Assembly (NCBI GenBank): GCA_040388745.1
Contig: JAZKBF010000028.1
Span: 55,418-119,417 of the forward strand
From: Bacteroidota bacterium
Lineage (GTDB): Bacteria; Bacteroidota; Bacteroidia; 2-12-FULL-35-15
Direction of reading: 5' to 3'
DNA: 64,000 nt
The translations under genes and the position numbers were made by a program. Of the stretch, positions 26,081 through 64,000 are shown piece by piece (position 1 is the first letter of the stretch; every line of letters begins with the position of its first letter). The notes under the pieces are model-generated. The model was not told the origin of the DNA, ran no database searches, and worked only from the letters and a program-made list of their open reading frames with translations.

Positions 26081-26083
26081 GAG

Positions 26084-43945: not shown

Positions 43946-43947
43946 TA

Positions 43948-44220
43948 TTAGTGTCTGAAATAATTAATAATAATAACCGCCAGGATAAGTAAAACAGGAG
44001 AGGAGCTTAACAGCAAACCAATAATTCCCGGAGTGAATTTTTTTGTGTTAATTTCTTTTTGAGTATCAATAAAAATATAGATACAAGAACAGATCATACC
44101 AATAAACCCGATGGGTAACGCAAATATTGGTGCTCCTGTTATCGGGGAGATACAAAGCAAAGCAGTAATAATGCCGATTGCAATGGCTACCTTTCCTAAA
44201 ATGTTTAATTTTTTTTCCAT
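43948..44220 (-). CDS. small integral membrane protein, translationally adjacent to the UbiA gene
   Basis: 90 aa with three hydrophobic helices. The stop lies 2 nt before the UbiA start. Confidence 0.4.
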   Translation of the reverse strand: MEKKLNILGKVAIAIGIITALLCISPITGAPIFALPIGFIGMICSCIYIFIDTQKEINTKKFTPGIIGLLLSSSPVLLILAVIIINYFRH

Positions 44221-44374
44221 AGAATTTTCAACTTTACAAAATTACCAATTTTTTTGGCTCTTATTTTGTAGTATTAAAATAATTGCAGAAGAATTGTTTC
44301 ATGTATAACTTAATGGCATTGAGTTACCTTTCTTTAATTTATCTTACTTTTGATGTCATAAATTTCAGATAAAA

Positions 44375-45004: not shown

Positions 45005-45547
45005 TTTAATGTTCGATATTACATAATTGAGCATGAAAACAGCAAAATTTTTTAATAATTTAGAATTTACCACCTATTTATTTACAAAAAAAACATTCCC
45101 TCTACCAGTTTTTTTTAAATTATTGCTAATAATCGTGATTTTTTAACTAGATATCGAAATAGTCGCCTGCTTTTTATAGATTTTTGATTCGTTAGGAATT
45201 TTGGAGTTAAATTAAAATCTTTTCGATGTAAAGTTCTTATTATCAGTTATTTGTATTGATGAATTGCTCTTTTTCCCTTCCTGTTAATTTTTCGACAAAC
45301 TCCTATTTTATCTATTTTAACGGAAGAAAAAGCACCCTGAAATATTCTTGAAATTAAAATTGTTGATAAAATTGTTAACAAATAATAAACATTTAAGTGT
45401 TTGATTTTCATGTATTTGAGTTTGATTTGCCCTGTTTTTTCATAAAAAAGCAATGTGTGTGTATAACTTTATTTCCGACTTTTTCGTATATTTCAGAAAT
45501 AAATCCGGGGATTTAATATTAGTTATAGGAAATTTTGTAATTGTAAT

Positions 45548-48500
45548 ATGGGAAATATTTATTCTTCCATGATTAATATTAAAAAAGTCATTGCAACATT
45601 AAAAATGATGCTTATAGCATCGCTTTTAGTTGTATCTGATGGTTTTAATAATTTTTCGTTTGCGCAGAGTCCTCAAATCTATACATCATCTAATACATTT
45701 ACTGTTCCTGCTTGTGTTTCTTCCATAACTATTGAAGTTGTTGGTGGAGGCGGTTCAGGTGGAGGTAATGGAGGCGGTGGTGGCGGTGGAGGAGGATATT
45801 CCAGTGGAACTTTTGCGGTTACTGCAGGTGCTAATCTGGCTGTAACAGTTGGAGGGGCGGGCACTACAACCAGTGTAGCTGCACTTATTTCAGCTACAGG
45901 CGGAGTTAATGGCGGAAGTGTTTCCAATCCCACAATTGGTGGTGGTGGTGCAGGTGGCGTAGGTTCAGGAGGCTCGGTCAATCGTACAGGAGGAACAGGC
46001 GGGGGAGGATATTATACGTATTTCGGAGGTGGTGGTGCAGGGGCTGCAGGTTCAGCCGGAGGAGGTAGTAATGGTGGTGATGTTATTGCATGGACAGGTA
46101 GTAATTGTTTGCAGCCAGGTGGTTCTGCCGGAGCCGGTGGCGGTGCACCGGGTGGAAACGGTGGTAAAGGTGCAGGTTTTACTGAAGGTACTTGTACTAC
46201 AAGCAATCCGGCTGCTGTTGGTGTGAACTATGGCGGTGGCGGTGGCGGTGGAAATGGTAATGGAGGTGCTGCTCAAGCTGGTGCCGGAGGTTATTGTAAA
46301 ATTTCATGGACTGCAAATCCTGCAATTGCAACTAATACGATAAGTGCGGCTCAAACTATTTGTTCTGGAGTTGTTCCGGCTGCATTGGCAGGATCTACTC
46401 CAACAGGAGGTAGTGGAGCTTATACTTATTTATGGGAATCTTCAACAACAAGTGCAGGAGCTGGTTTTGCCGCTGCATCAGGTACTAACACCAATATTGG
46501 CTATATTCCTCCTGCTTTAACGGCAACCACATGGTATAGAAGAACTGTGTATTCTGGCGGATGTACCGATGTTTCTGCAGCCATTGAAAAAACTGTTAAT
46601 CCAATACCTACAGTAACTACCGCAGCAACTGCTTCTACATGTAGTGGAACCGGCCCAAATATTGCTTTAACAGCAAGTGTGGCAAGTACTTTTACCTGGA
46701 CCATAGGAACAAATCCCGGTGCTATTACCGGAGCAAGTGCCAGTTCGGGATCTCCCATTAATCAAACACTTACTAATCCAAGTAATTCATCATCAAATGC
46801 CATACAATATCTTGTTACTCCTACTTCAACAGGAGGTTCATGTGTTGGTTCAGCTTATACAATAACTGTAACAGTAAACCCCAAACCCGCAATTTCTAAT
46901 GCTTCAACTAAGACGATATGTACTTCCACAGGTACAGCGATCACATTGGCTGCCAACGGTGTAAGTAGCACCTATGCCTGGACGTTGGGAGCAATAACAG
47001 GTGGTATCACGGGAGCAAGCGCCACGAGTGGATCTACTATTAGCCAAACGCTCGTCAATCCAAGTAATACAACTGACGGTACGGTGCCATACCTTGTTAC
47101 TCCCACTTCAACAACAGGTTCATGTGTGGGTGTTGCTTATACAATAACGGTAACTGTTACTCACGCTCCTACAATGACCAATGTATCCACATCTACGATA
47201 TGTAGTGGAACAGCATCCGGGATAACATTAACTGCAAATGAAGCAAGTACTTTTGCCTGGACAATAGGAACCAACGCAGGTGGCATCACAGGTGCCAGTG
47301 CCGGCTCTGGTTCCAATATGAGTCAAACGCTTACCAATCCAAGCAATTCAGCTGTCAATACCATACAATATATTGTTACACCTACTTCAACAGCAGGTGC
47401 TTTATGTTCTGGGCCTTCTTATACTATGACTGTAACGGTTAATCCTAAGCCGGCTGTAAACAATGCTGCAACTGGTTCAACTTGTAGTGGAACAGGTCCG
47501 AATTTTGCATTAACAGCCACTGCTGCCAGTACTTTCACTTGGACAGTTGGGACAATAACAGGTGCGATAACCGGAGCCAGTAATAGTTCGGGAACCCCTA
47601 TTAATCAAACGCTTACAAATCCAAGTAATGCAACAGATGGTACCGTACAATATCTCATAACCCCCACTTCAACAACGGGTACATGTGTAGGGGCTGTTTT
47701 CTCATTGGTTGAAACAGTTAACCCAACACCGGCAGTTACTAGTGCAGCCACAAAAACGATATGTACAGCCACTGGTACAGCCATAACATTAGCCGCAAGT
47801 GCACCAAGTAATTTTGCCTGGACATTAGGCGCGATAACAGGTGGAATTACCGGGGCAAGCGCCACTAATGGAGCTGCTATTAGTCAAACGCTCACTAATC
47901 CAAGTAATACCGGGGATGGAACCGTGCCATATCTTGTTACCCCAACTTCTACAACCGGTTCCTGTGTTGGTAATGCTTCAACAATAACTGTAACAGTAAC
48001 TCATGCACCAACAATAACCAATGCTGCAGCAGCTTCAATATGTAGCGGAACCGCAACAGGCATTACTTTAACTGCAAATGAAGCAAGTACATTTGCATGG
48101 ACCATAGGGTCAAATCCTGGCGGCATTACTGGTGCAAGTGCCGGCTCAGGCTCTAATATGAGCCAAACGCTTACTAATCCAAGCAATGCAACAGCAAACA
48201 CCATACAATATATTGTTACCCCTACTTCAACTGCAGGCGCTTTATGTGCTGGTCCCGCTTTTACTATAACGGTAACAGTGAATCCAAAACCGGTAGTTAC
48301 AACTGCAGCAACTGATCCTACTTGTAATGGAACCGGACCGAATATCTCATTAACAGCGACTGCGCCAAGTTCTTTTGCCTGGACGATTGGAACGATAACT
48401 GGTGCCATTACTGGAGCCAGTAACAGTTCAGGCGCTACTATTAATCAAACACTTACTAATCCAAGCACAACAACGGCAGGTACGGTGCAGTATCTGGTTA

Positions 48501-51500
48501 CACCCACTTCAACAACAGGTTCATGTGTTGGAGTTGCATATACAATCACGGTAACAGTAAATCCGGAACCAATTGCTATATTTACCGGAGGCGCTAACCA
48601 AACAGTATGCTCTGGAGTTGCACTTCCAACTCCAATTGCGCTTGGTACAAGTAACAGCATTGCAGGAACAACATTTGCCTGGACAAGAGATAATACAACA
48701 AATGTTACTGGTACTACAAGTGGTTCAGGAAATATCTCAGCTCTGGTATTGACCAACATAACCACTTCGCCACAAACGGTAACTTTTACAATAACACCAA
48801 CGGGCCCCACTCCAACCTTTTGTATAGGTGCAACAATAACCACAACTGTTGTGGTAAATCCAATCCCGGTATTAAACAGTAGTTTGACAATACCTGCAAT
48901 TTGTAATGGAAACACATTGTCTTATGGTGCCACCAGTGCAACTTCAGGTGCAACATTTGCATGGACTCGTGCTGCGGTTACTAATATTACACCGGCAACA
49001 TCATCCGGAACAGGCAATGTAAGTGAAGCATTAACGAATGGATCTGGTTCTCCCGGAGCACCCATCAATGTTACTTATGTGTATACAACTACAGCAAATG
49101 GTTGCAGTAATGCAGGACAAAACGTTGTGGCAACAGTAAATGTACTTCCAATTGGAACCATCACTAACAGTGCACAAACCATTTGTTCAGGAGCAACATT
49201 TTCAACAATGGTTTTAGGTACCAGTAATGGTGTTACTTCCACTACTTTTACCTGGACCAGAAATAATGGTGCTATAACAGGTATTGGAGCAAGTGGGTCG
49301 GGTGGAAGTATTGGAGGAGTTGCATTAACAAATACAACTGGTTCAGACCAAACAATAACATTTACAATAACACCATCCTGTTCCGGTGCCAATTTAACTG
49401 CTACAATTTTAGTTCGAGCAAGTATTGTATTAAATAGCACATTATCTCCACCTGCAATTTGCAGTGGCGCTACTTTTGCTTATACACCAACAAGCGCAAC
49501 CGGTGGCGCTACTTTCGCATGGACCCGTCCTGTCGTATCAGACATATCATCACCGGGAGGGGCTTCTGGCGCTGGCAGTGTAAGCCAGGTGTTAAATAAT
49601 AGCAGCACTAATAGCATTAATGTTACTTATGTATACACAACTACAAATCCAGGAACAGGCTGTAGTAATGCTGGAGAGAATGTAGTTGTAGCGGTTGAAA
49701 AAGCACCTGTGGCAGCAGGAACAATAAGCGGTACCCCTTTAATATGCCAGGCACAAACATACTCTTATTCGGTGCCGGCAATACAAAATGCCACCACTTA
49801 TACCTGGAGTTATTCCGGAACCGGAGTTACTATAAATGGATCAACATCAAACATAACGGTTTCTTTTTCAACTTCAGCTACATCAGGCAATCTAACGGTA
49901 AGAGGAACCAATAGTTGTGGAAATGGAACGATATCTGCCAACTATGCCATTGGGTTAAATGCTAATGCCACAATTGCTTTGACATCAACTGCAGGAACTA
50001 ATTTCCAAACCGTTTGTGTAAATATTCCGATAGCGGATATTACTTATTTGGTTGGAGGTGGCGGAACAGGTGCAGGAGTTACTGCATTGCCTACCGGGAT
50101 CTCAAGTTCTTTTAGCGGCAGCACGTTGACAATCAGTGGTACTCCTACTGTGGTTGGGACTTTCCCTTATACAATAACTACAACAGGAACCTGTATTCAA
50201 ACCAGTGCAGCCGGAAGCATTATAATTGCTCCTCTTCCAACATTAAACAGTTCATTGGCCCCTCCGGCAGTGTGTAGTAATTCAACTTTCAATTACACAC
50301 CAACAAGTCCGGTTTCAGGTGCAACATTCACCTGGACAAGAGCTGCGGTAGCAGGGATAAGTAATGGAGCAAACAGTGGTACTGGTAATCCTGGTGAAAT
50401 TCTTTACAATACTACTTTAACAGCAGTAAATGTTACCTATGTTTATACTGTAGTTGCTAATGGTTGTTCAAGTGCTTCAATCTCCAATGTTGTAGTTTCA
50501 GTAAAGCCACAGGCTTTATTAAGTAGTTCACTTACACCACCGGCTATTTGCAGTGGAATAGCATTTACGTATACCCCTGCAAGCGCAACAGCTGGTTCAT
50601 CTTTTGCATGGGCAAGAGCCGCAACAGGAGGGATCAGCCAGGCAGCCAACAGTGGCACAGGCGATCCGAACGAAATATTAACCAATACAACAGCTACTAC
50701 TGTTAATGTTACTTATGTTTATACGATCACTGCTACGGGGTGTAGTTATAATCAAAATGTTGTTGTACCGGTAACACCAACCCCAACATTAAGCAGTTCA
50801 TTAAATCCTCCTGCAGCTTGCAGTGGAGTTGCAGTGAACTATACACCAACCAGTGCAACTCCGGGGGCATCGTTCACCTGGACAAGAGCTGTAGTAGCCG
50901 GTATAAGCAATGGTGCTGGAAGCGGTACTGCCAACCCTTTCGAAACACTTACAAATACAACAACTTTAGCGGTTAACGTAACTTATATTTATACAGTAAC
51001 AGCCAATAGTTGCACCAATCTGACCACTTTCAGTGTAATTGTTCCTATAAATCCAAGGCCAACCTTAAACACCACCTTAACTCCTCCCGCAATATGTAGT
51101 GGTACCGTTTTTAGTTATGTCCCCGGCAGTGCAGTGGCAGGTTCAACATTTGCTTGGGCAAGAGCAGCAATTGGTGGTATAAGCAATCCAGCGGCTAATA
51201 ATACAGGTAATCCATCAGAAACGCTTACCAACACTTCAACAGCTCCGATCAATGTTACATACGTTTATACAACTGCCGCCAACGGATGCAGCTTTGATCA
51301 AAGTGTGGTTGTAACGGTAAATCCGAAACCAACGCTAAACAGTAGTTTGGCACCTACAGTATGTAGTGGCTACACCTTTAACTATGTGCCGACAAGTGCA
51401 ACAGCTGGTGCTTCATTTACATGGACAAGAGCGGTAGTAGTAGGAATCAGCAATGGAGCAGGAAGCGGATCAGGTTCTCCTTCAGAGATCCTTACCAATA

Positions 51501-54500
51501 CTACAACAGCATCTGTAAGTGCTACTTACATTTATACTGTATCGGCTAATAGTTGCGTAAATGCAACTACTTTTAGCGTGATCGTTAATGTATTTCCAAG
51601 GCCAACCTTAAGCAGTACATTAACGCCCGGAGCAATATGCAGCAATGTCATTTTCAATTACACACCCGCAAGCGCCATCGGAGGGGCAACATTTGCCTGG
51701 GCAAGAGCCGCAATACCTGGTATCAGTAATGCCGCTAACAATGGTGTAAATAATCCTGCCGAAACCCTTATCAATACAACAGCTGCTCCGGTAAATGTTA
51801 CATATATTTATACAACATCAGCGAATGGTTGCAGTTTTGATCAAAACGTGATCGTAACGATAAACCCTAATCCTACTTTAAACAGTAGTTTAACACCAAC
51901 GGTTTGTAGTGGGGCTGCTTTTAATTATACCCCTACAAGTGCAACAGCGGGTGCATCATTTGCATGGACAAGGGCAGTAGTAGCCAATATCAGCAATGGA
52001 GCAGGTAGTGGTACAGGTGCTCCATTTGAAACACTTTATAATACTACAACAGTTTCCGTTAATGTAACCTACATTTATACAGTTGCTGCCAATGCATGTA
52101 CAAATGCTACAACTTTTAGTGTAGTTGCTACTGTTTATCCTGCGCCTACATTAAGCAGCACATTAACACCTGCTGCAATTTGCAGTAATACTATTTTCAA
52201 TTATCCCCCTTCAAGTGCAATAGGCGGGGCTACTTTTTCATGGTCAAGAGTTGCGGTGGGAGGTATCAGCAATGCAGCAAACAGCGGCATCAACAATCCG
52301 AACGAAACCCTGATCAATACTTCAACGGTTCCTGTAAATGTTGTTTACGTCTACACAACTACTGCCAATGGTTGCAATAATAATCAAAATGTAATTGTAG
52401 CAGTAAATCCAAAGCCAGTACTAAACAGTAGTCTAACGCCAACAGTATGCAGTGGAGCATCTTTCAATTACACCCCCACAAGTGCAACACCGGGAACAAC
52501 ATTCACATGGACAAGAGCCGCAGTAGCAGGTATCAGTAATGGCGCGAACAGTGGTTCAGGTACTCCATTTGAAACTCTTTTTAATACCACAGGTGCTTCA
52601 GTGGATGTTACTTATATTTATACACTTTCGGCTAATGGTTGTACCAATGCAACAACATTTAGTGTGGTTGCCACCGTTTACTCAAATCCAACATTAAGCA
52701 GTACAACAACACCTCCTGCAATTTGTAGTGCTACTCTTTTTTCTTACGTGCCATCAAGTTCAACTGGTGGAGCAACATTCTCGTGGTCAAGAGCTACAGT
52801 GCCGGGTATCAGCAATGCATCAAGTAGTGGCACAAACAATCCGAATGAAACACTTACCAATACATCAACGGCTCCTATCAATGTTACCTATATTTATACG
52901 ACTTCTGCCAATGGTTGCAATAATAATCAAAACGTAATTGCAACTGTTAATCCAACACCGGCATTGAACAGTAACCTGACACCATCAGTATGTAGCAATT
53001 CTACCTTTAATTATACACCAACAAGTGCTACTGCAGGTGCCACATTTACATGGACAAGAGCTGCCGTAGGTGGCATTAGTAATGGAGCGGGTAGCGGCAG
53101 CGGCTCTCCATTCGAAACACTTATCAATACAACAGCAGCTCCTGTAACAACCACTTATATTTTTACTGTAACCGCTAATCTTTGTACAAATGCAGCAACA
53201 TTCAGTGTAGTAGTTACGGTAAATCCAAGGCCTGCATTAAGCAGTGCGCTTACTCCTCCGGCAATTTGTAGTGGTACTGTTTTTAGTTACGCACCAACAA
53301 GTGCAACGGCAGGGGCTACATTCCCCTGGAACAGAGCAGCAGTAGGAGGTATCAGCAATGCAGCTAATAACGGTACAGGTAATCCGAGCGAAACCCTTAA
53401 TAATACAACAACAGCTCCTGTTAATGTTACTTATATTTATTCAACTACTGCCAATGGTTGCTTTTTTGATCAAAGTGTAGTGGTAACGGTAAATCCAAGA
53501 CCTGCATTAAACAGTAGTCTTACACCATCAGTTTGCAGCAATTCTGCTTTTAATTATACCCCAACAAGTGCAACCGCTGGTGCTACATTTACATGGACAA
53601 GAGCAACAGTTGCCGGTATCAGCAATGGAGTGGGAAGTGGGGCTGGTTCTCCTTTCGAAACCCTTATTAATACAACCGCTAATCCTGTAAATGTTACTTA
53701 TATTTTTACAGTAACCGCTAATTTATGTACAAATGCAACCACTTTCAGTGTTGTTGCAACTGTAAATCCAAGACCAACACTAAGCAGTGGTTTAACTCCT
53801 CCTGCAATTTGCAGTGGTACTGCTTTTAATTATTCTCCAACAAGTGCAACAGCAGGTGCAACATTTCCATGGGCAAGAGCGGCCGTTGGAGGTATCAGCA
53901 ATGCAGCGAATAATGGCACTGGTGATCCGGGCGAAACATTAATTAATACTACAACAACTCCGATCAATGTTACTTATGTTTATTCAACAACTGCAAACGG
54001 TTGCTTTTTTGACCAGAATGTTGTAGTAATTGTTAATCCAACACCGGCATTGAACAGTAACCTGGCGGTAGCGGTATGTAGCCACATCACCACTTTTAAT
54101 TATACACCAACAAGTGCCACACCGGGCGCAACATTTACCTGGACAAGAGCGGTAGCTGCAAATATCAGTAATGGCGCGGGAAGTGGTTCAGGCTCTCCGT
54201 CTGAAGTTCTTTTCAATATCACAGCTGCCCCGGTAACTTGTACTTATATTTTTACCGTTACCGCTAATACATGTGTAAATCCAACTACTTTCAGTGTAGT
54301 GGTTACAGTGAATCCAAGGCCATTGTTAAGTAGTTCATTAACACCTCCTGCAATTTGTAGCGGTACAGCTTTCAGTTACATACCGGCAAGTGCAACCACC
54401 GGTTCAACCTTCCCATGGTTTCGTGCTGCCGTTCCGGGTATCAGCAATCCTGCCACCAGTGGTACAGGTAATCCGAGCGAAGTATTAAGCAATACCACCA

Positions 54501-57500
54501 CCACTCCGATAAATGTTACATATACATATGGAGTAACAGCTAATGGTTGCCAGGTTAATAACAATGTAATTGTAACCGTATATCCGCCTCCAACATTAAA
54601 CAGTACATTAGCTCCTGGTGGATATTGCTCTAATTCCCAACAAGGCTATGTTGTTAGTTACACACCTTCAAGTGCAACACCCGGAGCAACGTATACCTGG
54701 ACAAGAGCCGTGGTAGCTGGTGTGAGTGCAGGCGCAGGCAGCGGATCTGGTAATATATATGAAGGACTAAATAATACAACATCAGCTAATATTAATGTTA
54801 CCTATGTTTATACAGTGACAGCTAATGGTTGTACAAACCCAACAACCTATAATGTAGTTATTGTATTATATCCTAGTCCGGTATTAAGCACCAGTACGGC
54901 TCCACCTGCAATTTGTAGCGGAACTGCTTTCAATTATGTGCCATCAAGTTCAGTAGCAGGTACAACATTCACCTGGTGGCGCGGAACTACTACTGGTATA
55001 AGTCAGCCAGCGAGCAGTGGTTCTGGTAATCCCATCGAAGTGCTTACCAATTTATCAACCTTTCCTGTTGTGGTTGTTTATTTGTTTAGAGGAATAGCAA
55101 ATGGATGCCGTTATGATGTAAATGTGAACCTTACAGTTAATCCGGAACCATCATTAAGCAGTACAATTACGCCTCCGGCAATATGTAACAATACAGCTTT
55201 CAGTTATATACCAACAAGTGATATAGTAGGTGCAACATTTGCATGGACAAGAGCGGCAGTAGCAGGTATCAGTAATCCGGCCGGAAGTGGTACGGGTAAT
55301 CCAAATCAAATACTTATCAATACTACCACGGCTCCTGTAAATGTTACCTATGTTTACACGATATCCGCAAATGCCTGTACAAGTTTAACAACATCGAGTG
55401 TAGTGGTATCCGTAAATCCAAACCCCGGATTTACAAGTAGTTTAACCCCTCCTGCAATTTGCAGTGGTACTGCATTTAATTACTCTCCTACAAGTGGAAC
55501 AGCCGGGGCATTGTTTACCTGGTCCAGAGCGGCAGTGGTGGGTATAAGTAATATGGCTGCCAGTAGTATCGGTAATCCCAATGAAGTACTTATAAATACA
55601 ACAGCAGCTCCTGTAAATGCTACTTATACCTATAGTATATCAGCAAATGGTTGTACAAATCCTACAACATTTAATGTAATAGTAAGTGTAAATCCAAACC
55701 CAACATTAACGAGTACACTAACTCCCCCGATAATTTGTAGTGATTCGGTTTTTAATTATGTACCAACAAGTGCAGTAACAGGCGCAACGTTTAGTTGGGT
55801 AAGACAAGCTGTGGTGGGTATAAGCAATGCACCCGGCAGTGGAACATTCAATCCGAATGAAACTCTTGTAAATACCACAACCGGTACTATAAATGTTACC
55901 TACGTTTATACAGTATCAGCAAATGGTTGCGCTAATCCAACTACTTACAATGTTGTGGTTGCTGTAAAAATTTGTGCTTGTAATCATTCATTAAGCAGCA
56001 GTTTAACGCCTCCAGCTATTTGTAGTAGCACTCCATTTAATTACATACCAACAAGCTCCTCACCGGGAGCTTCATTTACCTGGACAAGAGCCGTAGTAGC
56101 CGGTATCACCAACGCGGCAGGAACGGGTTCCGGTAATCCTAACGAAACGCTTATCAATACTACTGTTGCTCCTATTAATGTTACCTATATTTATTCGGTT
56201 ACTATGATCTGTACAAATCCAATAACGTATAGTGTAGTAGTTAGGGTAAACCCAAGTCCAACATTAACAAGTACATTAACGCCTCCCGCTATATGTAGCG
56301 GAATAGCCTTCAGCTATACTCCATTAAGTGGAACAACAGGCTCAACATTTCCATGGACAAGAGCGGTGATATCCGGGCTTAGCAATCCATTTGGAAGTGG
56401 TACCGGCAATCCATCGGAAGTACTTACCAATACATCATCATCACCTATAAATGTCACTTATGTTTACAATGTAACTGCCAATGGTTGCAGTAACGGTCAA
56501 AATGTAGTTGTAACGGTAAATCCAAAACCAACATTAAGCAGCACATTAGCACCTCCAGCGGTTTGTAGTGGTGTTGTTTTCAATTATTCCCCAACCAGTT
56601 CAACTGGCGGGGTCTTATTTTCCTGGACAAGAGCAGCGGTTGCGGGTATCAGCAATGTAGCCGCAAGTGGTACGGGTAATCCTGCTGAAACACTTATCAA
56701 TACAACTGCAGCTCCTAAAAATGTAACGTACATTTATACATTATCAGGCAGTGGATGTGTGAATGCAACAACCTATAGTGTAGTTGTTGCAGTAAATCAG
56801 GAACCAACCTTAAGCAGTACACTATCACCGCCTGCAATTTGCAGTGGCTCCACTTTCTACTATACACCAACAAGTGCAACAAGTGGTGCTACTTTTACAT
56901 GGACACGAGCAGCTGTAGTAGGCATAAGCAATCCTGCCACTTTCGGTTCAGCCGACCCGATTGAAACGCTTATTAATACCACCTCTGTTCCTAAAAATGT
57001 TACTTATGTTTATACGTTATCTGCTTTCGGCTGTGTAAACTCAACAACTTACAGTGTGGTTGTTGTTGTAAATCCAACACCTTTATTAAGCAGTGTTACA
57101 TTACCTCCGGCAATATGTACAGGCACTGTTTTTAGCTATGTACCAACAAGTGCAACAGTTGGCGCCTCATTTGCATGGGACAGAGCTGCGGTTATAGGGA
57201 TAAGTAATGTTGCCGCCACAGGTACAGCTAATCCGTCCGAAACACTTGTTAATACTACTTCAGGTCCTGTAAATGTTACTTATGTTTATACCTTAACGGC
57301 AAACGCTTGTACAAATGCAACAACATATAACGTAGTTGTAACTGTAAAGCCAACACCGATCCTGAGCAGCCTTTTAACTCCTCCGGCAATTTGCAGCGGT
57401 GCAACTTTTAATTATACACCTACAAGTGCAACAGCTGGTACCACTTTTTCATGGGCAAGAGCAGTGGTAGCAGGCATCAGCAATGTGGCTGCCAGCGGAT

Positions 57501-60500
57501 CCGGCAATCCGGCCGAAGTACTTGCCAATACAACTACAAACCCTGTAAATGTTACCTACATTTATACATTAACGGCTAACAGCTGCGCAAACCCAAGTAC
57601 TTATAGTGTTGTGGTTCAGGTAAATCCTGTGCCCATCTTTATCAGTAGTTTAACCCCTCCTTCCATTTGCAGTAATACAGCTTTCTATTATACGGCAATA
57701 AGCTCAACGGCCGGTGCATCATTCTCATGGACAAGAGCAGCTGTAGTTGGTATCAGTAATCCAGCAACCAGTGGCACTGGCGATCCGATCGAAACGCTTA
57801 TTAATACAACCACTATTCCGAAAAACGTTACGTATGTTTATACAGTATCAGCTAATGGTTGTACAAATGCAAGTACTTATAGTGTGGTTGTTATAGTAAA
57901 TCCAATACCTACGTTAGGCAGTGTTTTATTACCTCCTGCTATATGCAGTGGTGCATCTTTTAGTTATACAGCAACCAGTGTTACAGCGGGTGCAACCTTT
58001 GCCTGGACAAGAGCAGCAGTAATAGGGATAAGCAATGCAGCAGCAACTGGTGCCGGGAATGTGAGCGAAATACTTACAAATACAACTGTAGCACCAATAA
58101 ATGTTTCTTATATTTATACAGTATCAGCCAATGGTTGCACAAATGCAACTCTCTATAATGTTGTGGTTCGTGTAAATCCAACACCAACATTAAGCAGCAC
58201 ATTAGCTCCTCCTCCGGTATGTAGTGATTCTGTTTTTAATTACACTCCAACCAGTCCGGTTGCAGGCACCACTTTCACATGGACAAGAGCTGCAGTGGCA
58301 GGTATCAGCAATCCGGCAGCCAGCGGTAGTGGTAATCCGAACGAATCGCTTACCAATACAACAGCAAGTCCTATAAACGTTACTTACATTTATACTTTAT
58401 CAGCTAATGGTTGCTTGGGCGCTACAACTTACAATGTAGTTCTTAATGTGAGAGTAGCTTGTCAATGTAATCATTCATTAAGCAGTAGTTTAACACCTCC
58501 GGCAGTTTGTAGTGGTATCGTTTTCAGTTATGCACCTACAAGTTCATCACCGGGTGCAACATATACATGGTCAAGGGCTTTGGTAACAGGCATTAGTAAC
58601 GCAGCAAGCAGCGGTGCCACTAATCCCAACGAAATTCTTATCAATACCACCAGCGCTCCGGTAAATGTTACCTACATTTATTATGTAACAGCTAATGCCT
58701 GTACAAATCTAAATAGCTTTAGTGTAGTTGTGATCATAAATCCAAGACCACTTTTAAGCAGTACATTAACACCAGCTGCAATATGCAGCGGAACAACTTT
58801 CAATTACATTCCGGCAAGTGAAACTTCAGGTGCTTCTTATACATGGAGCAGAGCAACCGTTACAGGTATTAGCAATTCGATCGGTAGTGGTTCAGGTAAT
58901 CCGAATGAAACACTTATCAATACACTCACAACGCCTGTAAATGTTACTTACATTTATACAATTTCCGCTAATGCCTGTAGTTTTAATCAGAGTGTAGTTG
59001 TTGCTATTAATCCTACTCCAACATTGAGCAGTAGTTTGGCACCTCCGGCAATTTGCAGTGGTACTGCTTTCAATTACTCACCTACAAGTGGAACAACAGG
59101 TGCCTCTTTTACCTGGACAAGGGCCGCGGTAGCAGGCATCAGCAATGGGCTGAATAATGGCACTGGGAATCCTGGTGAAGTACTTATTAATACAACGGTA
59201 AATCCAATAAATGTTACTTATGTTTTCAGCTTATCTGCTAATAGCTGTCCGGGTGGAACAACCTATAGCGTGGTTGTTCGCGTAAACCCTTTACCAACAT
59301 TAAGCAGCACTTTAACACCTTTAGCAATATGTAGCGGTGCAGCATTTAGTTATATTCCAACAAGTAACACAACAGGTACTTCCTTTGCCTGGACAAGAGC
59401 AACGGTAGCAGGTATCAGCAATGTTGCCGGACTGGGAACGGACAATCCAAATGAAACACTCAACAATACAATAGCATCCAATGTAAATGTTACTTATATT
59501 TATACATTATCGGCTAATGGTTGCACCAATGCCAGCACTTTTAGCGTTGTGGTTCCTGTTACAGCTGCCCCAACATTAAGCAGTAGTTTAGCACCGCCTG
59601 CAATATGCAGTGGTACACCTTTTACTTACGGGCCAACAAGCGCAACATCAGGTGCGTCCTTTGCATGGACCAGAGCTGCAGTGGCGGGCATCAGCAATAT
59701 AGCCGCCAGTGGTACTGGTAATCCAAACGAAACACTTACCAATACAGCGTCTACCGCTATAAATGTTACTTATGTTTATACAGTTTCCGCGAATGGTTGT
59801 ACCAATCCAACTACATACAATGTTGTAGTTACAGTTAATCTATTGCCAACATTAAGCAGCAGTTTAGCACCCTCAGCAATATGCAGCAGTGCACTCTTTA
59901 ATTACACTGCAACAAGTGCAACAGGTGGAGCATCATTTACCTGGACAAGAGCAGTTGTTGCCGGTATAAGCAATGCCGCGGGCAGCGGAACCGGCAATCT
60001 GAATGAAACGCTTATCAATACAACAAACAGTTCAGTAAATGTTACTTATGTATATTCGGTAACAGCAAATGGCTGTACAAACCCTACTACTTATAGTGTA
60101 GTTATCCTTGTTAATCCTGCGGCAACATTAAGCAGCACATTAACGCCTTCAGCAATTTGCAGTGGTACGGTTTTTAATTATTCACCTTCATCTTTAACCA
60201 CTGGGGCAACATTTGCCTGGGCAAGAGCTGCAGTTGCCGGTATAAGCAATACAGCAGGGGGAAATGCTGGTAATCCAAATGAGGTACTTACGAATACAAC
60301 CACAGCTCCAATAAATGTTACTTATGTGTATTCGGTAACAGCCAATGGTTGTTTAAATCCAACAACTTACAATGTTGTGGTTCCCGTGAACCCAACACCT
60401 GCATTAAGTAGTAGTTCAAGTCCTCCTGCAATATGCAGCGGTACTGTTTTTAGTTATGCTCCAACAAGTGCCACAACCGGTGCCACCTTCTTATGGACAA

Positions 60501-63500
60501 GAGCGGTGGTAGCTGGTATCAGCAATATAGGAGGTAGTGGAGCAGGTAATCCGAATGAAACCATTATAAATACAACAGCAGCTTCTGTAAATGTTACTTA
60601 CATCTATACGGTAACTGCTAATCTTTGCGCCAATGCCACCACTTATAATGTTGTGGTTGCCATAACGCCATCACCAACGCTAAGCAGCAGTTTAGCACCT
60701 CCTGCATTTTGCAGTGGCACTCCTTTTAATTACACACCTTTATGTCCAACATCAGGTGCCTCATTTACATGGACAAGAGCAGTGGTAGCAGGTATCAGCC
60801 AGATAGCGAGCAGTGGAACCGGTAACCCGAATGAAACACTTACAAACCTTACCATCGCTTCTGTAAATGTGACCTATATTTATACTGTTTCAGCAAATGG
60901 CTGTACAAACCCAACAACCTTCAGTGTAGTTGTTCCGGTAACGGCAGCACCAACATTAAGCAGCAGTTTAGCTCCTCCGGCATTTTGCAGTGGCACGGCT
61001 TTCAGTTATACACCTTTGAGTGCAACAGTTGGTGCAACATTTGCATGGACAAGAGCGGTAGTAGCCGGCATCAGTAATTTAGCAAACAGTGGCACCAACA
61101 ATCCAAATGAAGTATTGACCAATACAACAACTGCACCCGTAAATGTTACTTATGTTTATACTGTATCTGCTAATGGTTGCGCCAATGCTACTACTTTTAG
61201 TGTTGTTGTTCCTGTAAATCCAATACCGGTGTTAAACAGTAGTTTAGCACCTCCGGCAATATGCAGTGGTACTCCTTTCGCTTACGGACCAACAAGTGCA
61301 ACTACAGGTGCCTTATTTGCATGGACAAGAGCTGCAGTATCAGGTATCAGCAATATAGCAAGTAATGGAACAAGCAATCCGAATGAAACGCTTATCAATA
61401 CAACAACAGCTGGCGTAAATGCTACTTATGTTTATACTGTAACTGCTAATGGCTGTACAAATGCCAGCACTTTTAATGTTGTGGTTACAGTATATCCTGC
61501 ACCAATTTTAAGCAGCAGTTTAACGCCCCCAACAATATGCAGTGGTAATGCTTTCAGTTATACTCCTGCAAGCGCAACACCAAGTGTAGCATTTGCCTGG
61601 ACAAGAGCATTGGTAACGGGCATCAGCAATATATCAAATAGTGGTGCGGGTAATCCGAACGAAATACTCACCAACACCACTGCAAACCCTGTAAATGTTA
61701 CTTACGTATATACTTTATCTGCTAATGGATGTACTAATCCAATAACTTTTAGTGTGGTTGTAACGGTTACCCCTGCACCAACATTAAGCAGTACATTAAC
61801 TCCTCCTGCAATTTGCAGTTCAACGCTTTTCAATTATTCGCCAACAAGTTCAACTCCCGGGGCAACTTTTACCTGGACCAGAGGAGTAGTAGGAGGTATC
61901 AGTCAGCCGGCCGGCAGTGGTACCGGTGATCCAAACGAAGCACTTACCAATACAACCGGGGCCCCTATAAATGTTACTTATGTTTATACAGTATCAATTA
62001 ATCTTTGTACAAATCCAACTACTTACAATGTAGTTGTATCTGTAATTTTAGCTCCAACATTAAATAGCAGTTTAGCGCCTCCTACAATATGTACCGGCTC
62101 TCTTTTTAGTTATGCGCCTACAACTGCAACACCACCGGCTGCATTCTCATGGACAAGAGCCGCTGTAGCGGGAATCAGTGAAATAGCAGGCAGTGGTACC
62201 GGTAATCCAAGCGAAATTCTTACCAATACAACAACATCACCTATAAATGTTACTTACCTGTATACTGTATCCGCCAATGGCTGTGTAAATTCAACGGCTT
62301 ATAGTGTAGTTGTTACCGTTAGCCCAAAACCAACCTTGAGTAGTACCTTATCCCCTCCGGCAGTTGTTTGTGGCGCTCCTTTTAACTACACACCTTTAAG
62401 CGCAACAGGAGGCGCGGCATTCTCATGGACAAGAGGAGTGGTTGTGGGTATCAGCAATATAGCGGGTAGTGGCACAAATGATCCTAATGAAGTACTAACC
62501 AATACAACGGATAATCCAATAAACGTTACGTATGTTTATTCTGTATCTGCTAACGGTTGTACTAATCCAACAACCTTTAGTGTGGTGGTTGCTGTAAGCC
62601 CAACACCTACATTAAGCAGTAGTTTATCACCTCCTGCATTTTGTAGTGGTACTGCATTCAGTTACACACCTACTAGTGCAACTGTAGGCGCAACATTTGC
62701 ATGGACAAGAGCGGTGGTATTGGGTGTAAGCAATAGTGCAAGCGCTGGGGCAAATAATCCCAACGAAATCCTTACAAATACAGTAACAGTTCCTGTAAAT
62801 GTCAAATATGTTTATACAGTATCTGCAAACGGTTGTACTAACGCAACAAACTTTAATGTAATTGTTCCGGTTAATCCAAACCCGACTTTAAACAGCACTG
62901 CAACACCTCCTGGAATATGTAGTGGCAGCGTGTTCAGCTATGCGCCAACAAGCGCAACAACCGGTTCAACTTTTTCCTGGACCAGAGCTTCAGTTGCAGG
63001 AATTAGTCAAATAGCCGGTAGTGGCTTTACTAATCCGCTTGAAACACTCACAAATACAACAGCTGCTTCTGTAAATGTAACTTACATTTATACTGTTTCT
63101 GCTAATACTTGTACCAATGCTACAACATTTAATGTAGTGGTTACTGTTTATGCAAACCCATTGTTAACCAGTAGTTTAACTCCTCCTGCAGTGGTGTGTG
63201 GTGCTGCTTTTAATTACTCTCCAACAAGTACCACTTCAGGTGCAGCATTTGGATGGACAAGAGCGGTAGTAGCAGGTATCAGCAATATAGCAGCCAGCGG
63301 TGCAGGTAATCCAAGCGAAACGCTGAACAATACAACTATAAATCCTATAAATGTTACTTATGTTTATACCGTTGCCGCTAATGGTTGCACAAATGCTACA
63401 ACCTTTAATGTGGTTGTGGCAGTGAACCCAACTCCAATATTAAGCAGCACATTAACCCCTCCTGCAATTTGTAGTAATACTTCTTTCACCTATACTCCCT

Positions 63501-64000
63501 CAAGTGCAACAGTAGGAGCATCCTTCGGATGGACCAGGGCAGTGGTTGCGGGTATCAGCCAAACTGCAGGCAGTGGGTCGGGTAACCCTTTGGAAACACT
63601 TACGAATACAACAATAGCTCCTGTAAATGTTACTTATATTTATACCCTGTCAGCTAACGGTTGTACAAATCCAACGACTTATAGTGTGGTTGTTAAAGTG
63701 AACCCTATACCAACATTAAACAGCAGCTCAACCGCTCCTGCAATTTGTAGCGGCACAGCTTTCAGTTATGCGCCAACAAGTGCAACCATAGGATCATCGT
63801 TTTCCTGGACAAGAGCCGCAGTAATAGGTATCAGCAATATATCGGGCAGTGGCACAGGAAATCCTAATGAAACCCTTTCAAATACAACACAAGCTTCAAT
63901 AAATGTTACCTACATTTATACTGTTTCCGCTGATGGTTGTACAAATGCAACAACTTTTAACGTGGTTGTTGCTGTAAATCCAACCCCAACATTAAGCAGC
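45548..64000 (+). CDS. partial (3' end beyond window) giant repetitive cell-surface protein of more than 6,150 aa: signal peptide, Gly-rich N-terminal domain, then ~65 tandem ~90-aa two-Cys Ig/PKD-like domains; probable T9SS-secreted SprB-like adhesin
   Basis: Reading frame 2 (ATG 45548, alternative ATG 45569) has no stop codon that I could find through to 64000 when read by hand. There is a 270-280-bp periodicity with the consensus LTPPAICSGTAFNYTPTSATAGATFTWTRAAVAGISN..SGTGNPNETLINTT.APVNVTYIYTVSANGCTN.TTF.VVVTVNP.PTLSS. Confidence 0.8.
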   Translation, partial: MGNIYSSMINIKKVIATLKMMLIASLLVVSDGFNNFSFAQSPQIYTSSNTFTVPACVSSITIEVVGGGGSGGGNGGGGGGGGGYSSGTFAVTAGANLAVTVGGAGTTTSVAALISATGGVNGGSVSNPTIGGGGAGGVGSGGSVNRTGGTGGGGYYTYFGGGGAGAAGSAGGGSNGGDVIAWTGSNCLQPGGSAGAGGGAPGGNGGKGAGFTEGTCTTSNPAAVGVNYGGGGGGGNGNGGAAQAGAGGYCKISWTANPAIATNTISAAQTICSGVVPAALAGSTPTGGSGAYTYLWESSTTSAGAGFAAASGTNTNIGYIPPALTATTWYRRTVYSGGCTDVSAAIEKTVNPIPTVTTAATASTCSGTGPNIALTASVASTFTWTIGTNPGAITGASASSGSPINQTLTNPSNSSSNAIQYLVTPTSTGGSCVGSAYTITVTVNPKPAISNASTKTICTSTGTAITLAANGVSSTYAWTLGAITGGITGASATSGSTISQTLVNPSNTTDGTVPYLVTPTSTTGSCVGVAYTITVTVTHAPTMTNVSTSTICSGTASGITLTANEASTFAWTIGTNAGGITGASAGSGSNMSQTLTNPSNSAVNTIQYIVTPTSTAGALCSGPSYTMTVTVNPKPAVNNAATGSTCSGTGPNFALTATAASTFTWTVGTITGAITGASNSSGTPINQTLTNPSNATDGTVQYLITPTSTTGTCVGAVFSLVETVNPTPAVTSAATKTICTATGTAITLAASAPSNFAWTLGAITGGITGASATNGAAISQTLTNPSNTGDGTVPYLVTPTSTTGSCVGNASTITVTVTHAPTITNAAAASICSGTATGITLTANEASTFAWTIGSNPGGITGASAGSGSNMSQTLTNPSNATANTIQYIVTPTSTAGALCAGPAFTITVTVNPKPVVTTAATDPTCNGTGPNISLTATAPSSFAWTIGTITGAITGASNSSGATINQTLTNPSTTTAGTVQYLVTPTSTTGSCVGVAYTITVTVNPEPIAIFTGGANQTVCSGVALPTPIALGTSNSIAGTTFAWTRDNTTNVTGTTSGSGNISALVLTNITTSPQTVTFTITPTGPTPTFCIGATITTTVVVNPIPVLNSSLTIPAICNGNTLSYGATSATSGATFAWTRAAVTNITPATSSGTGNVSEALTNGSGSPGAPINVTYVYTTTANGCSNAGQNVVATVNVLPIGTITNSAQTICSGATFSTMVLGTSNGVTSTTFTWTRNNGAITGIGASGSGGSIGGVALTNTTGSDQTITFTITPSCSGANLTATILVRASIVLNSTLSPPAICSGATFAYTPTSATGGATFAWTRPVVSDISSPGGASGAGSVSQVLNNSSTNSINVTYVYTTTNPGTGCSNAGENVVVAVEKAPVAAGTISGTPLICQAQTYSYSVPAIQNATTYTWSYSGTGVTINGSTSNITVSFSTSATSGNLTVRGTNSCGNGTISANYAIGLNANATIALTSTAGTNFQTVCVNIPIADITYLVGGGGTGAGVTALPTGISSSFSGSTLTISGTPTVVGTFPYTITTTGTCIQTSAAGSIIIAPLPTLNSSLAPPAVCSNSTFNYTPTSPVSGATFTWTRAAVAGISNGANSGTGNPGEILYNTTLTAVNVTYVYTVVANGCSSASISNVVVSVKPQALLSSSLTPPAICSGIAFTYTPASATAGSSFAWARAATGGISQAANSGTGDPNEILTNTTATTVNVTYVYTITATGCSYNQNVVVPVTPTPTLSSSLNPPAACSGVAVNYTPTSATPGASFTWTRAVVAGISNGAGSGTANPFETLTNTTTLAVNVTYIYTVTANSCTNLTTFSVIVPINPRPTLNTTLTPPAICSGTVFSYVPGSAVAGSTFAWARAAIGGISNPAANNTGNPSETLTNTSTAPINVTYVYTTAANGCSFDQSVVVTVNPKPTLNSSLAPTVCSGYTFNYVPTSATAGASFTWTRAVVVGISNGAGSGSGSPSEILTNTTTASVSATYIYTVSANSCVNATTFSVIVNVFPRPTLSSTLTPGAICSNVIFNYTPASAIGGATFAWARAAIPGISNAANNGVNNPAETLINTTAAPVNVTYIYTTSANGCSFDQNVIVTINPNPTLNSSLTPTVCSGAAFNYTPTSATAGASFAWTRAVVANISNGAGSGTGAPFETLYNTTTVSVNVTYIYTVAANACTNATTFSVVATVYPAPTLSSTLTPAAICSNTIFNYPPSSAIGGATFSWSRVAVGGISNAANSGINNPNETLINTSTVPVNVVYVYTTTANGCNNNQNVIVAVNPKPVLNSSLTPTVCSGASFNYTPTSATPGTTFTWTRAAVAGISNGANSGSGTPFETLFNTTGASVDVTYIYTLSANGCTNATTFSVVATVYSNPTLSSTTTPPAICSATLFSYVPSSSTGGATFSWSRATVPGISNASSSGTNNPNETLTNTSTAPINVTYIYTTSANGCNNNQNVIATVNPTPALNSNLTPSVCSNSTFNYTPTSATAGATFTWTRAAVGGISNGAGSGSGSPFETLINTTAAPVTTTYIFTVTANLCTNAATFSVVVTVNPRPALSSALTPPAICSGTVFSYAPTSATAGATFPWNRAAVGGISNAANNGTGNPSETLNNTTTAPVNVTYIYSTTANGCFFDQSVVVTVNPRPALNSSLTPSVCSNSAFNYTPTSATAGATFTWTRATVAGISNGVGSGAGSPFETLINTTANPVNVTYIFTVTANLCTNATTFSVVATVNPRPTLSSGLTPPAICSGTAFNYSPTSATAGATFPWARAAVGGISNAANNGTGDPGETLINTTTTPINVTYVYSTTANGCFFDQNVVVIVNPTPALNSNLAVAVCSHITTFNYTPTSATPGATFTWTRAVAANISNGAGSGSGSPSEVLFNITAAPVTCTYIFTVTANTCVNPTTFSVVVTVNPRPLLSSSLTPPAICSGTAFSYIPASATTGSTFPWFRAAVPGISNPATSGTGNPSEVLSNTTTTPINVTYTYGVTANGCQVNNNVIVTVYPPPTLNSTLAPGGYCSNSQQGYVVSYTPSSATPGATYTWTRAVVAGVSAGAGSGSGNIYEGLNNTTSANINVTYVYTVTANGCTNPTTYNVVIVLYPSPVLSTSTAPPAICSGTAFNYVPSSSVAGTTFTWWRGTTTGISQPASSGSGNPIEVLTNLSTFPVVVVYLFRGIANGCRYDVNVNLTVNPEPSLSSTITPPAICNNTAFSYIPTSDIVGATFAWTRAAVAGISNPAGSGTGNPNQILINTTTAPVNVTYVYTISANACTSLTTSSVVVSVNPNPGFTSSLTPPAICSGTAFNYSPTSGTAGALFTWSRAAVVGISNMAASSIGNPNEVLINTTAAPVNATYTYSISANGCTNPTTFNVIVSVNPNPTLTSTLTPPIICSDSVFNYVPTSAVTGATFSWVRQAVVGISNAPGSGTFNPNETLVNTTTGTINVTYVYTVSANGCANPTTYNVVVAVKICACNHSLSSSLTPPAICSSTPFNYIPTSSSPGASFTWTRAVVAGITNAAGTGSGNPNETLINTTVAPINVTYIYSVTMICTNPITYSVVVRVNPSPTLTSTLTPPAICSGIAFSYTPLSGTTGSTFPWTRAVISGLSNPFGSGTGNPSEVLTNTSSSPINVTYVYNVTANGCSNGQNVVVTVNPKPTLSSTLAPPAVCSGVVFNYSPTSSTGGVLFSWTRAAVAGISNVAASGTGNPAETLINTTAAPKNVTYIYTLSGSGCVNATTYSVVVAVNQEPTLSSTLSPPAICSGSTFYYTPTSATSGATFTWTRAAVVGISNPATFGSADPIETLINTTSVPKNVTYVYTLSAFGCVNSTTYSVVVVVNPTPLLSSVTLPPAICTGTVFSYVPTSATVGASFAWDRAAVIGISNVAATGTANPSETLVNTTSGPVNVTYVYTLTANACTNATTYNVVVTVKPTPILSSLLTPPAICSGATFNYTPTSATAGTTFSWARAVVAGISNVAASGSGNPAEVLANTTTNPVNVTYIYTLTANSCANPSTYSVVVQVNPVPIFISSLTPPSICSNTAFYYTAISSTAGASFSWTRAAVVGISNPATSGTGDPIETLINTTTIPKNVTYVYTVSANGCTNASTYSVVVIVNPIPTLGSVLLPPAICSGASFSYTATSVTAGATFAWTRAAVIGISNAAATGAGNVSEILTNTTVAPINVSYIYTVSANGCTNATLYNVVVRVNPTPTLSSTLAPPPVCSDSVFNYTPTSPVAGTTFTWTRAAVAGISNPAASGSGNPNESLTNTTASPINVTYIYTLSANGCLGATTYNVVLNVRVACQCNHSLSSSLTPPAVCSGIVFSYAPTSSSPGATYTWSRALVTGISNAASSGATNPNEILINTTSAPVNVTYIYYVTANACTNLNSFSVVVIINPRPLLSSTLTPAAICSGTTFNYIPASETSGASYTWSRATVTGISNSIGSGSGNPNETLINTLTTPVNVTYIYTISANACSFNQSVVVAINPTPTLSSSLAPPAICSGTAFNYSPTSGTTGASFTWTRAAVAGISNGLNNGTGNPGEVLINTTVNPINVTYVFSLSANSCPGGTTYSVVVRVNPLPTLSSTLTPLAICSGAAFSYIPTSNTTGTSFAWTRATVAGISNVAGLGTDNPNETLNNTIASNVNVTYIYTLSANGCTNASTFSVVVPVTAAPTLSSSLAPPAICSGTPFTYGPTSATSGASFAWTRAAVAGISNIAASGTGNPNETLTNTASTAINVTYVYTVSANGCTNPTTYNVVVTVNLLPTLSSSLAPSAICSSALFNYTATSATGGASFTWTRAVVAGISNAAGSGTGNLNETLINTTNSSVNVTYVYSVTANGCTNPTTYSVVILVNPAATLSSTLTPSAICSGTVFNYSPSSLTTGATFAWARAAVAGISNTAGGNAGNPNEVLTNTTTAPINVTYVYSVTANGCLNPTTYNVVVPVNPTPALSSSSSPPAICSGTVFSYAPTSATTGATFLWTRAVVAGISNIGGSGAGNPNETIINTTAASVNVTYIYTVTANLCANATTYNVVVAITPSPTLSSSLAPPAFCSGTPFNYTPLCPTSGASFTWTRAVVAGISQIASSGTGNPNETLTNLTIASVNVTYIYTVSANGCTNPTTFSVVVPVTAAPTLSSSLAPPAFCSGTAFSYTPLSATVGATFAWTRAVVAGISNLANSGTNNPNEVLTNTTTAPVNVTYVYTVSANGCANATTFSVVVPVNPIPVLNSSLAPPAICSGTPFAYGPTSATTGALFAWTRAAVSGISNIASNGTSNPNETLINTTTAGVNATYVYTVTANGCTNASTFNVVVTVYPAPILSSSLTPPTICSGNAFSYTPASATPSVAFAWTRALVTGISNISNSGAGNPNEILTNTTANPVNVTYVYTLSANGCTNPITFSVVVTVTPAPTLSSTLTPPAICSSTLFNYSPTSSTPGATFTWTRGVVGGISQPAGSGTGDPNEALTNTTGAPINVTYVYTVSINLCTNPTTYNVVVSVILAPTLNSSLAPPTICTGSLFSYAPTTATPPAAFSWTRAAVAGISEIAGSGTGNPSEILTNTTTSPINVTYLYTVSANGCVNSTAYSVVVTVSPKPTLSSTLSPPAVVCGAPFNYTPLSATGGAAFSWTRGVVVGISNIAGSGTNDPNEVLTNTTDNPINVTYVYSVSANGCTNPTTFSVVVAVSPTPTLSSSLSPPAFCSGTAFSYTPTSATVGATFAWTRAVVLGVSNSASAGANNPNEILTNTVTVPVNVKYVYTVSANGCTNATNFNVIVPVNPNPTLNSTATPPGICSGSVFSYAPTSATTGSTFSWTRASVAGISQIAGSGFTNPLETLTNTTAASVNVTYIYTVSANTCTNATTFNVVVTVYANPLLTSSLTPPAVVCGAAFNYSPTSTTSGAAFGWTRAVVAGISNIAASGAGNPSETLNNTTINPINVTYVYTVAANGCTNATTFNVVVAVNPTPILSSTLTPPAICSNTSFTYTPSSATVGASFGWTRAVVAGISQTAGSGSGNPLETLTNTTIAPVNVTYIYTLSANGCTNPTTYSVVVKVNPIPTLNSSSTAPAICSGTAFSYAPTSATIGSSFSWTRAAVIGISNISGSGTGNPNETLSNTTQASINVTYIYTVSADGCTNATTFNVVVAVNPTPTLSS

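Follow-up and report, generated by a model that had tools for sequence, protein, structure and literature searches.

A giant, conserved reading frame in a Bacteroidota contig is predicted to encode a long-reach, Ig-repeat surface adhesin of the type 9 secretion system

What does a Bacteroidota cell make from a reading frame that opens at position 45548 of a 64,000-nucleotide stretch of its DNA and is still open where that stretch ends? The stretch, referred to here as the window, covers positions 55,418 to 119,417 of contig JAZKBF010000028.1 (assembly GCA_040388745.1), and its coordinates are counted from its first letter. We examined whether the giant open reading frame (ORF) at 45548-64000 is a genuine gene, what its product is built from, how it is likely to end, and which of several known surface systems it most resembles. 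The evidence points to a long-reach type B surface adhesin of a type 9 secretion system (T9SS), composed of about 100 Ig-like beads and carrying a head like that of phage tail fibres; we place the probability of this reading at roughly 0.8.

Automated in-frame translation of 45548-64000 (18,453 nt, a multiple of 3) gave 6,151 codons with 0 stops. The nearest upstream in-frame stop is a TAA at 45500. Across the same interval the remaining five frames contain 210-520 stops each, and the longest open run among them is 158 codons. Base composition gives a stop probability of 0.057 per codon, or one stop expected every 17-18 codons, and under this model the chance of 6,151 stop-free codons is ~1e-157. 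These results bear out a sequence-only reading of the window, which had traced the frame from 45548 to the window end and had observed that it was missing from the accompanying ORF listing. That listing holds only a 156-aa antisense ORF (48445-48915) for this stretch, because frames that run off the source are omitted by design.

A long frame of this kind might stem from faulty assembly, or from non-coding repeats that lack stops by chance. Mis-assembly can befall tandem repeats, and the sole other assembly of the strain breaks within the gene, at 48172. That assembly was reached by exact lookup with the upstream 209-aa gene, which returned only a 9.6-kb Logan contig from short-read data set SRR26324622. 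The contig is an independent assembly that is 100% identical to window 38581-48172 and is broken 875 codons into the giant gene; it confirms the sequence and adds no extension.

A more extensive comparison came from a genome-collection scan with a recurring 20-mer, which recovered, in 8-kb tiles, an ortholog along with further giant homologs. In the same scan the window's own genome was absent from the GTDB representatives, and its organism was not found in the metagenome scan. The ortholog lies on JAURXZ010000049.1 of 'Bacteroidia bacterium E10_metabat.bin.7', a GTDB-representative metagenome-assembled genome (MAG). Three consecutive tiles align to window 45435-64000 at 85-86% nucleotide identity, and the encoded protein stays collinear along the full 6,151 residues, at 91.1% amino acid identity and a single 1-residue gap. 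The Nei-Gojobori ratio of nonsynonymous to synonymous substitution (dN/dS, omega) between the two genes is 0.081 at a dS of 0.60 and is uniform along the gene. When the 50 units of the main repeat array described below were compared one by one, each had an omega of 0.03-0.16. Every module and every main-array unit is thus under purifying selection. Given the identical short-read contig, the collinear ortholog and the uniformly low dN/dS, the giant ORF is a genuine, strongly conserved gene. The artefact explanation is in effect already refuted: besides the negligible chance of a stop-free frame, it conflicts with a dN/dS of 0.08 throughout all units, with strong Pfam matches and a confident AF2 model, with units that are at most 81% identical in nucleotide sequence and share no exact repeat longer than 26 nt, and with the same unit count in an independent MAG of another species.

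Most of the protein is a stalk of PKD_5 units (PF19406). The window encodes 61 of them (7 + 4 + 50), each of ~92 aa, together with one PKD_6 domain. The first seven, of ~93 aa, occupy aa ~346-1005 (46583..48562, + strand), begin at aa 352, 445, 539, 633, 726, 819 and 913, and form a three-unit super-repeat that appears in the ortholog as a self-match at an offset of 840 nt with 80% identity. Four mixed PKD_5 units follow (aa ~1006-1392; 48563..49723, + strand), two of them of main-array type, with matches to the unit hidden Markov model (HMM) at 1016-1112, 1113-1208, 1205-1300 and 1299-1392. Next come the PKD_6 domain (aa ~1387-1463; PF19408, E 8e-15) and one more Ig-like domain (aa ~1464-1569), which together span 49724..50254 on the + strand; a He_PIG match here is weak (E 0.08). 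The main array then begins and runs off the window: 50 seamless PKD_5 units of 90-96 aa (aa 1570-6151; 50255..64000, + strand), arranged head to tail and scoring 82-152 bits against the unit HMM. PF19406 exceeded its gathering score in all four segments of the protein (E 3e-106, 4e-80, 3e-104 and 1e-67; 11-18 stretches each), with 11 stretches falling within aa 1-1600. A scan of the window protein against NCBIfam gave no matches.

The unit pattern of the main array is nearly invariant, including two conserved Cys residues. TRF places the repeat period at 276 bp (92 aa), which corrects an earlier figure of 270 bp. The units are nonetheless well separated in sequence, with unit-to-unit identities of 40-87% in protein and 47-81% in DNA and a longest exact DNA repeat of 26 nt. 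Orthologous units are 91% alike, as against 60% for paralogous units, indicating that the array is older than the split of the two species. The sequence-only reading had cautioned that the tandem repeats might have collapsed in a short-read assembly. Within the window this concern was not borne out: the divergence between units, the lack of long exact repeats and the equal unit count in the independently assembled MAG over the shared stretch make collapse unlikely. At a few unit boundaries we observed short 'C-x-C-N/T-H' insertions, which place an extra Cys pair every 7-24 units. They occur at aa 3476 and 4305 of the window protein (~nt 55973 and 58460) and at aa 3475, 4304, 6514, 7433, 8352 and 8998 of the ortholog, with positions common to both species.

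In composition the protein is 17.5% Thr and 12% Ser (~30% Thr+Ser), and charged residues make up only ~3%. The AF2 model of three stalk units (pLDDT 93) is all-beta and consists of Ig-like beads. Beyond generic Ig arrays, the best Foldseek matches to this model are five fragments of GhpA, the giant grappling-hook protein of Aureispira, at TMq ~0.5 and 20-24% identity. At E <= 0.001 a three-unit profile had no match among PDB sequences, those of GhpA among them, and the resemblance to GhpA is therefore at the level of fold only; sequence homology to the GhpA stem repeats was considered and rejected on the same result.

The end of the protein lies beyond the window and was approached through the ortholog, whose frame runs through the third tile without closing, to 7,965 codons. 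A metagenome scan with the same 20-mer yielded a JGI contig, Ga0105164_10002446 (L041), that overlaps the last 6.1 kb of the ortholog tiles at 98.8% identity and extends the ortholog by a further 5.2 kb. The composite ortholog ORF encodes 9,692 aa, with a stop 35 nt before the contig end, and contains 83 seamless main-array units. After the array, the C-terminus consists of two Ig_7-like domains, a PKD domain, two further Ig-like domains and a full-length CHU_C domain (PF13585, E 1.9e-25 over profile positions 1-86), which also scores 57.4 bits against TIGR04131 (cut-off 35). The type B C-terminal domain that the sequence-only reading had proposed looking for is therefore present in a 91%-identical ortholog. 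By orthology, the window would hold ~63% of a ~29-kb gene, and the 3' end of the gene in the window strain is expected to equal that of the ortholog.

The only higher-order repeat found in the composite ortholog is a segmental duplication of ~10 units beyond the window (aa ~7090-7920 versus ~8010-8840, an offset of 919 aa), with copies 75-90% identical in protein and 77-82% in nucleotide sequence. The copies are too diverged to be confused in an overlap of 98.8% identity. We therefore rejected the idea that higher-order repeats undermine the estimated length, this single old duplication being the only one.

At the other end of the protein, the ATG at 45548 encodes MGNIYSSMINIKK... and is followed by a second in-frame ATG at 45569. 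The peptide that had earlier been quoted for the start at 45548 (MINIKK...) actually begins at the second of these; both Met residues are kept in the ortholog, and 45569 is a possible alternative start. The start codon and a predicted Sec-type signal peptide (aa 1-41) occupy 45548..45670 on the + strand. By inspection, the peptide has a KK n-region, a hydrophobic core (MMLIASLLVV) and an SFA|QS cleavage motif, all conserved in the ortholog, and these features support the N-terminal signal peptide suggested previously. The gene is preceded by an AT-rich intergenic region, a putative promoter or 5' untranslated region (45005..45547, + strand). At 543 bp it closely matches the 540 bp claimed for it, and its GC content is 24.7%; the giant gene has 43% and the remainder of the window 34%. 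The canonical Bacteroidota -7 promoter motif, TAnnTTTG, was not found in 45005-45547.

Following the signal peptide is a glycine-rich head (aa 42-255; 45671..46312, + strand) that matches PF21722, Gly_rich_2, over nearly the whole profile (25.0 bits, cut-off 24.3) and belongs with the modules that combine a TNF-like fold with a polyglycine lattice, the fold of phage fibre tips. Since the anchor is C-terminal, the N-terminus is predicted to be distal, and the head is likely to be a distal binding tip. Systems available for comparison are the receptor-binding tail-fibre tips of cyanophage Pam3 (gp24, PDB 7ypx) and mycobacteriophage Bxb1 (gp33 and gp29), which pair a TNF-like with a glycine-rich part, and the glycine-rich domain of ALK/LTK. 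The module differs from the phage tips in its setting: it is N-terminal in a cellular T9SS protein, whereas theirs is the C-terminal tip of a trimeric fibre, and no chaperone gene is seen here. Over this head, at 46000-46500, GC content reaches 50% and GC skew +0.32; both are attributable to GGN codons and do not speak for a foreign origin. The head is joined to the stalk by an Ig-like domain of Ig_7/RemA type (aa 256-345; 46313..46582, + strand), identified by phmmer through its match to residues 801-882 of Flavobacterium johnsoniae RemA (PDB 8gl6_D, E 2.3e-18).

A search with the N-terminal 1,000 aa gave no exact or orthologous entry, the best being 57% identical. Small T9SS proteins of ~560 aa (such as P0023, P0036 and P0040), made of Gly_rich_2, Ig_7 and Por_Secre_tail domains, are 50-62% identical to the head and first Ig domain of the window protein. 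They are short and have type A tails, whereas the window protein would carry its head on a ~9,000-aa stalk that is type B-ended in the ortholog.

The family also includes other giants, PKD-like domain-containing / T9SS type B sorting domain-containing proteins of Bacteroidota MAGs. One example comes from Kiruna_bin-09443, whose tiles concatenate to a frame of 6,929 codons; where one tile meets the next, the repeat units are completed in phase. An exhaustive search of 1.84 billion representative proteins for this repeat type, of which the 150 best-scoring were considered, yielded the complete protein P0241 (Kiruna_bin-09443, CAINDA010000044.1; 7,694 aa), which contains the tile-based reconstruction. 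P0241 is the longest of those 150, and the ortholog exceeds them all. Like the window protein, P0241 has mixed PKD_5 units, then a PKD_6 and an Ig domain, then a long array of ~92-aa PKD_5 units (50-54% identity over ~6,100 aa); its C-terminal module (two Ig_7-like, PKD, two Ig-like, CHU_C) is of the kind seen in the ortholog, at 51% identity. P0241 is shorter, and its N-terminal head is unrelated and lacks Gly_rich_2. A shared stalk and anchor combined with an unrelated head make the family look modular, with a variable tip.

Relatives also reveal what follows the gene. Given that the ortholog contig ends 35 nt after the stop and the window ends before the 3' end, the downstream neighbour is visible only in them. 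On an ENA scaffold (L045), a C-terminal piece, P0121, is 87% identical to the ortholog C-terminus (557-aa query); the scaffold has no overlap with the window, comes from a different sample and is not assignable to the window strain. Both P0121 and P0241 share the type B CHU_C end. On L045, a PorP/SprF gene (6314-7714; TIGR03519, 220.8 bits, cut-off 90.55) lies 510 nt downstream of the giant gene. In Kiruna (L018), the ORF 3' of the giant gene is likewise a PorP_SprF gene (E 2e-65), placed right after the CHU_C end of P0241 and possessing a GldN-like C-terminal region. A third locus, L022, probably also has such a carrier, as suggested by its conserved 467-aa downstream ORF. The carrier, which lies outside the window, joins a PorP/SprF barrel and, at the C-terminus, a GldN-like region in a single protein (PF11751 + PF19841). 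The GldN-like part is a partial match: it hits PF19841 at E 1e-9 and scores 23.7 bits on TIGR03523, whose cut-off is 85.9. The L045 carrier has no cysteine; the Kiruna carrier has one internal cysteine and none in its tail. A PorP/SprF-GldN fusion of this kind is unmentioned in PMC12635249. On L045, what comes after the PorP gene is not a PorE (ghpC-like) gene; it is an arginase gene, encoded on the opposite strand.

Several observations weigh against a type B adhesin with a phage-like binding head. The Pfam score that identifies Gly_rich_2 barely exceeds its cut-off, and the head evolves no faster than the stalk (omega 0.087 versus 0.077), giving no sign of receptor-driven diversification between the two species. 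Smaller PKD_5 relatives end in type A tails, so members of the family do not all terminate in the same type of tail. For the window gene, the account of its 3' end, its sorting domain and its downstream neighbour rests on an ortholog of ~86% nucleotide identity, and the ortholog end is itself a join between a MAG and a 98.8%-identical JGI contig. Upstream of the join, a G-run in that contig is one G longer than in the MAG, a 1-nt frameshift, and 93 nt at the contig's upstream end, as read along the gene, are unrelated sequence; both are probably an assembly error or a population variant.

If the gene ended differently in the window strain, whether by truncation, as a pseudogene past the window or in a type A tail, the picture of a 9,700-aa type B protein would not apply. 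The window stops short of that strain's 3' end, type A tails exist among family members, the frameshifting extra G occurs in a conspecific of the ortholog, and the 10-unit duplication in the tail region could vary in copy number. Perfect collinearity and a uniform dN/dS of 0.08 up to the last codon of the window argue the other way, as does the Ig_7-PKD-Ig-CHU_C end that the ortholog shares with two further lineages, L045 and the homolog from Kiruna. We therefore regard a different end as very unlikely.

The fold of the stalk and the PorP gene found downstream in relatives raise the question of whether the protein is instead a GhpA-like grappling hook, in which several copies, packed side by side, make up a rigid multimeric stalk for catching prey cells or partner cells. 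GhpA (5,898 aa; PDB 9flu, 9flv, 9fly, 9flp and 9g8b) forms a heptameric stalk 240 nm long with a distal hook. The two proteins have much in common. The five GhpA fragments are the best bacterial fold matches to the units; GhpA is likewise a giant T9SS cargo with a long stalk (52 Ig-like repeats), a surface rich in Thr/Ser, glycans on Thr/Ser and disulfides, and its gene is followed by a PorP homolog, as seen here in relatives; the window protein is 30% Thr+Ser, with two conserved Cys per unit; and phage heads with the fold of its head are trimeric. In contrast, neither GhpA nor any other PDB chain is matched by the unit profile at E <= 0.001, the module at the N-terminus, a glycine-rich head, is not the hook module of GhpA, and the PorP gene on L045 is followed by the arginase on the other strand instead of PorE. 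On balance a grappling hook seems unlikely.

A second alternative is a motility adhesin of SprB type, loaded by a PorP/SprF-like carrier onto a helical GldK/GldN track to drive gliding. The sequence-only reading had favoured a T9SS, gliding-type surface adhesin such as SprB. The T9SS surface adhesin part of that proposal is supported through the type B end of the ortholog. Membership in the SprB family is not: Pfam detected no SprB repeat (PF13573) in aa 1-3000, 3001-4817 or 4818-6151, that is, in any of the 6,151 residues, and the repeats are PKD_5. Like SprB of F. johnsoniae (6,497 aa), the window protein would be a giant Ig-repeat filamentous surface protein with a Sec signal and, judging from the ortholog, a type B C-terminal domain; in relatives a PorP/SprF-family gene lies downstream as well. 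Near the N-terminus, the first Ig domain is a match to RemA, a gliding adhesin, and the GldN-like region of the relatives' partner could dock on the track. Type B adhesins also differ in their behaviour: some move helically and others are static, Fjoh_4750 being a moving non-SprB example (PMC12618676), and gliding machinery is not the destination of all type B cargo. In SprF, an invariant CxC in the C-tail forms a disulfide to GldK that couples the protein to the gliding track and is required for sustained movement (PMC12635249). The L045 carrier, having no cysteine, cannot use this disulfide, and the Kiruna partner has no Cys in its tail, where SprB's partner has the CxC; the relatives' partners differ further in their GldN-like extension, a partial match that falls well short of the NCBIfam cut-off. 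Around the giant gene the window has no gld or spr genes, and no sprC/sprD-like context is seen here. A gliding role is thus not established, and we consider it doubtful.

For the long-reach type B adhesin that we prefer, the following sequence of events may be proposed. The Sec signal peptide would direct the protein to the periplasm, where the T9SS translocon would recognise a type B sorting domain such as the ortholog has at its C-terminus. The protein would then be transferred to a cognate outer-membrane barrel of the PorP/SprF family, encoded just downstream as in two relatives, which would hold it non-covalently on the surface. This scheme is consistent with reports that type B cargo are anchored at the surface through binding to PorP-like proteins, SprB binding to SprF (PMC9143113), and that they require cognate PorP/SprF shuttles while the C-terminal domain sets the final location (PMC12618676). 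About 100 Ig-like beta-sandwich domains, mostly ~92-aa PKD_5 units with a conserved Cys pair, would build a stalk several hundred nm long, or ~0.4 um if scaled from GhpA (240 nm per 5,898 aa). At its distal N-terminus this stalk would bear the TNF-like/glycine-rich head, of the receptor-tip type found in phage tail fibres and the likely ligand-binding module. Overall, the protein would serve as a long-reach adhesin that attaches to surfaces, to particles or to other cells.

A bolder version of this scheme is that the protein represents a distinct class of T9SS appendage, with a stalk of ~0.4 um, interchangeable heads and a cysteine-free PorP/SprF-GldN carrier that couples non-covalently to the GldK/GldN ring or track. 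Were this so, the stalk would be far longer than that of SprB or GhpA, the head would be a receptor-binding module of phage-tail-fibre type, and non-covalent coupling would provide an alternative to the SprF-GldK disulfide. We regard this version as speculative and rather improbable.

Other genes in the window are in keeping with a T9SS-bearing organism. A small type A cargo with an Omp28-like region and a Por_Secre_tail (PF18962, E 5.1e-12) is encoded at 31503..32570 on the - strand, in agreement with the earlier assignment of a T9SS C-terminal domain to this protein, and its presence indicates that the organism uses the T9SS. It is adjoined by a GWxTD-domain protein (29632-31131, - strand). 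The gene at 6889-8838 (+ strand) encodes a 649-aa protein with TPR, PD40 beta-propeller and OmpA domains in the order described for PorE; it is possibly a PorE-like gene, an ambiguous assignment given that the protein falls below both NCBIfam cut-offs (T9SS_PorE, 337 bits against 600; CHU_0125_OmpA, 341 bits against 620). The T9SS core genes sprA and gldKLMN are not in the window. An ECF-type (extracytoplasmic function) sigma factor is encoded at 32905-33480. Three consecutive ORFs at 23393-27788 (+ strand) look like a Mks/Wadjet-type condensin set: the first, of 895 aa, has a weak AAA_29 N-terminus, the second, of 397 aa, has no Pfam match, and the third, of 174 aa, matches MksE (E 7.5e-21).

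For annotation, the consequence is that pipelines requiring an in-window stop will miss this giant gene. For the biology of the family, the protein is an unusually large example of the already known giant T9SS type B Ig-repeat adhesins of Bacteroidota, and knowledge of T9SS adhesins is unchanged in kind. By orthology it would reach ~9,700 residues, larger than both characterised giant T9SS filaments, SprB (6,497 aa) and GhpA (5,898 aa). It offers a testable picture of such an adhesin: a stalk in which all 50 of the 50 units compared are individually constrained, a conserved type B anchor module and a swappable head.

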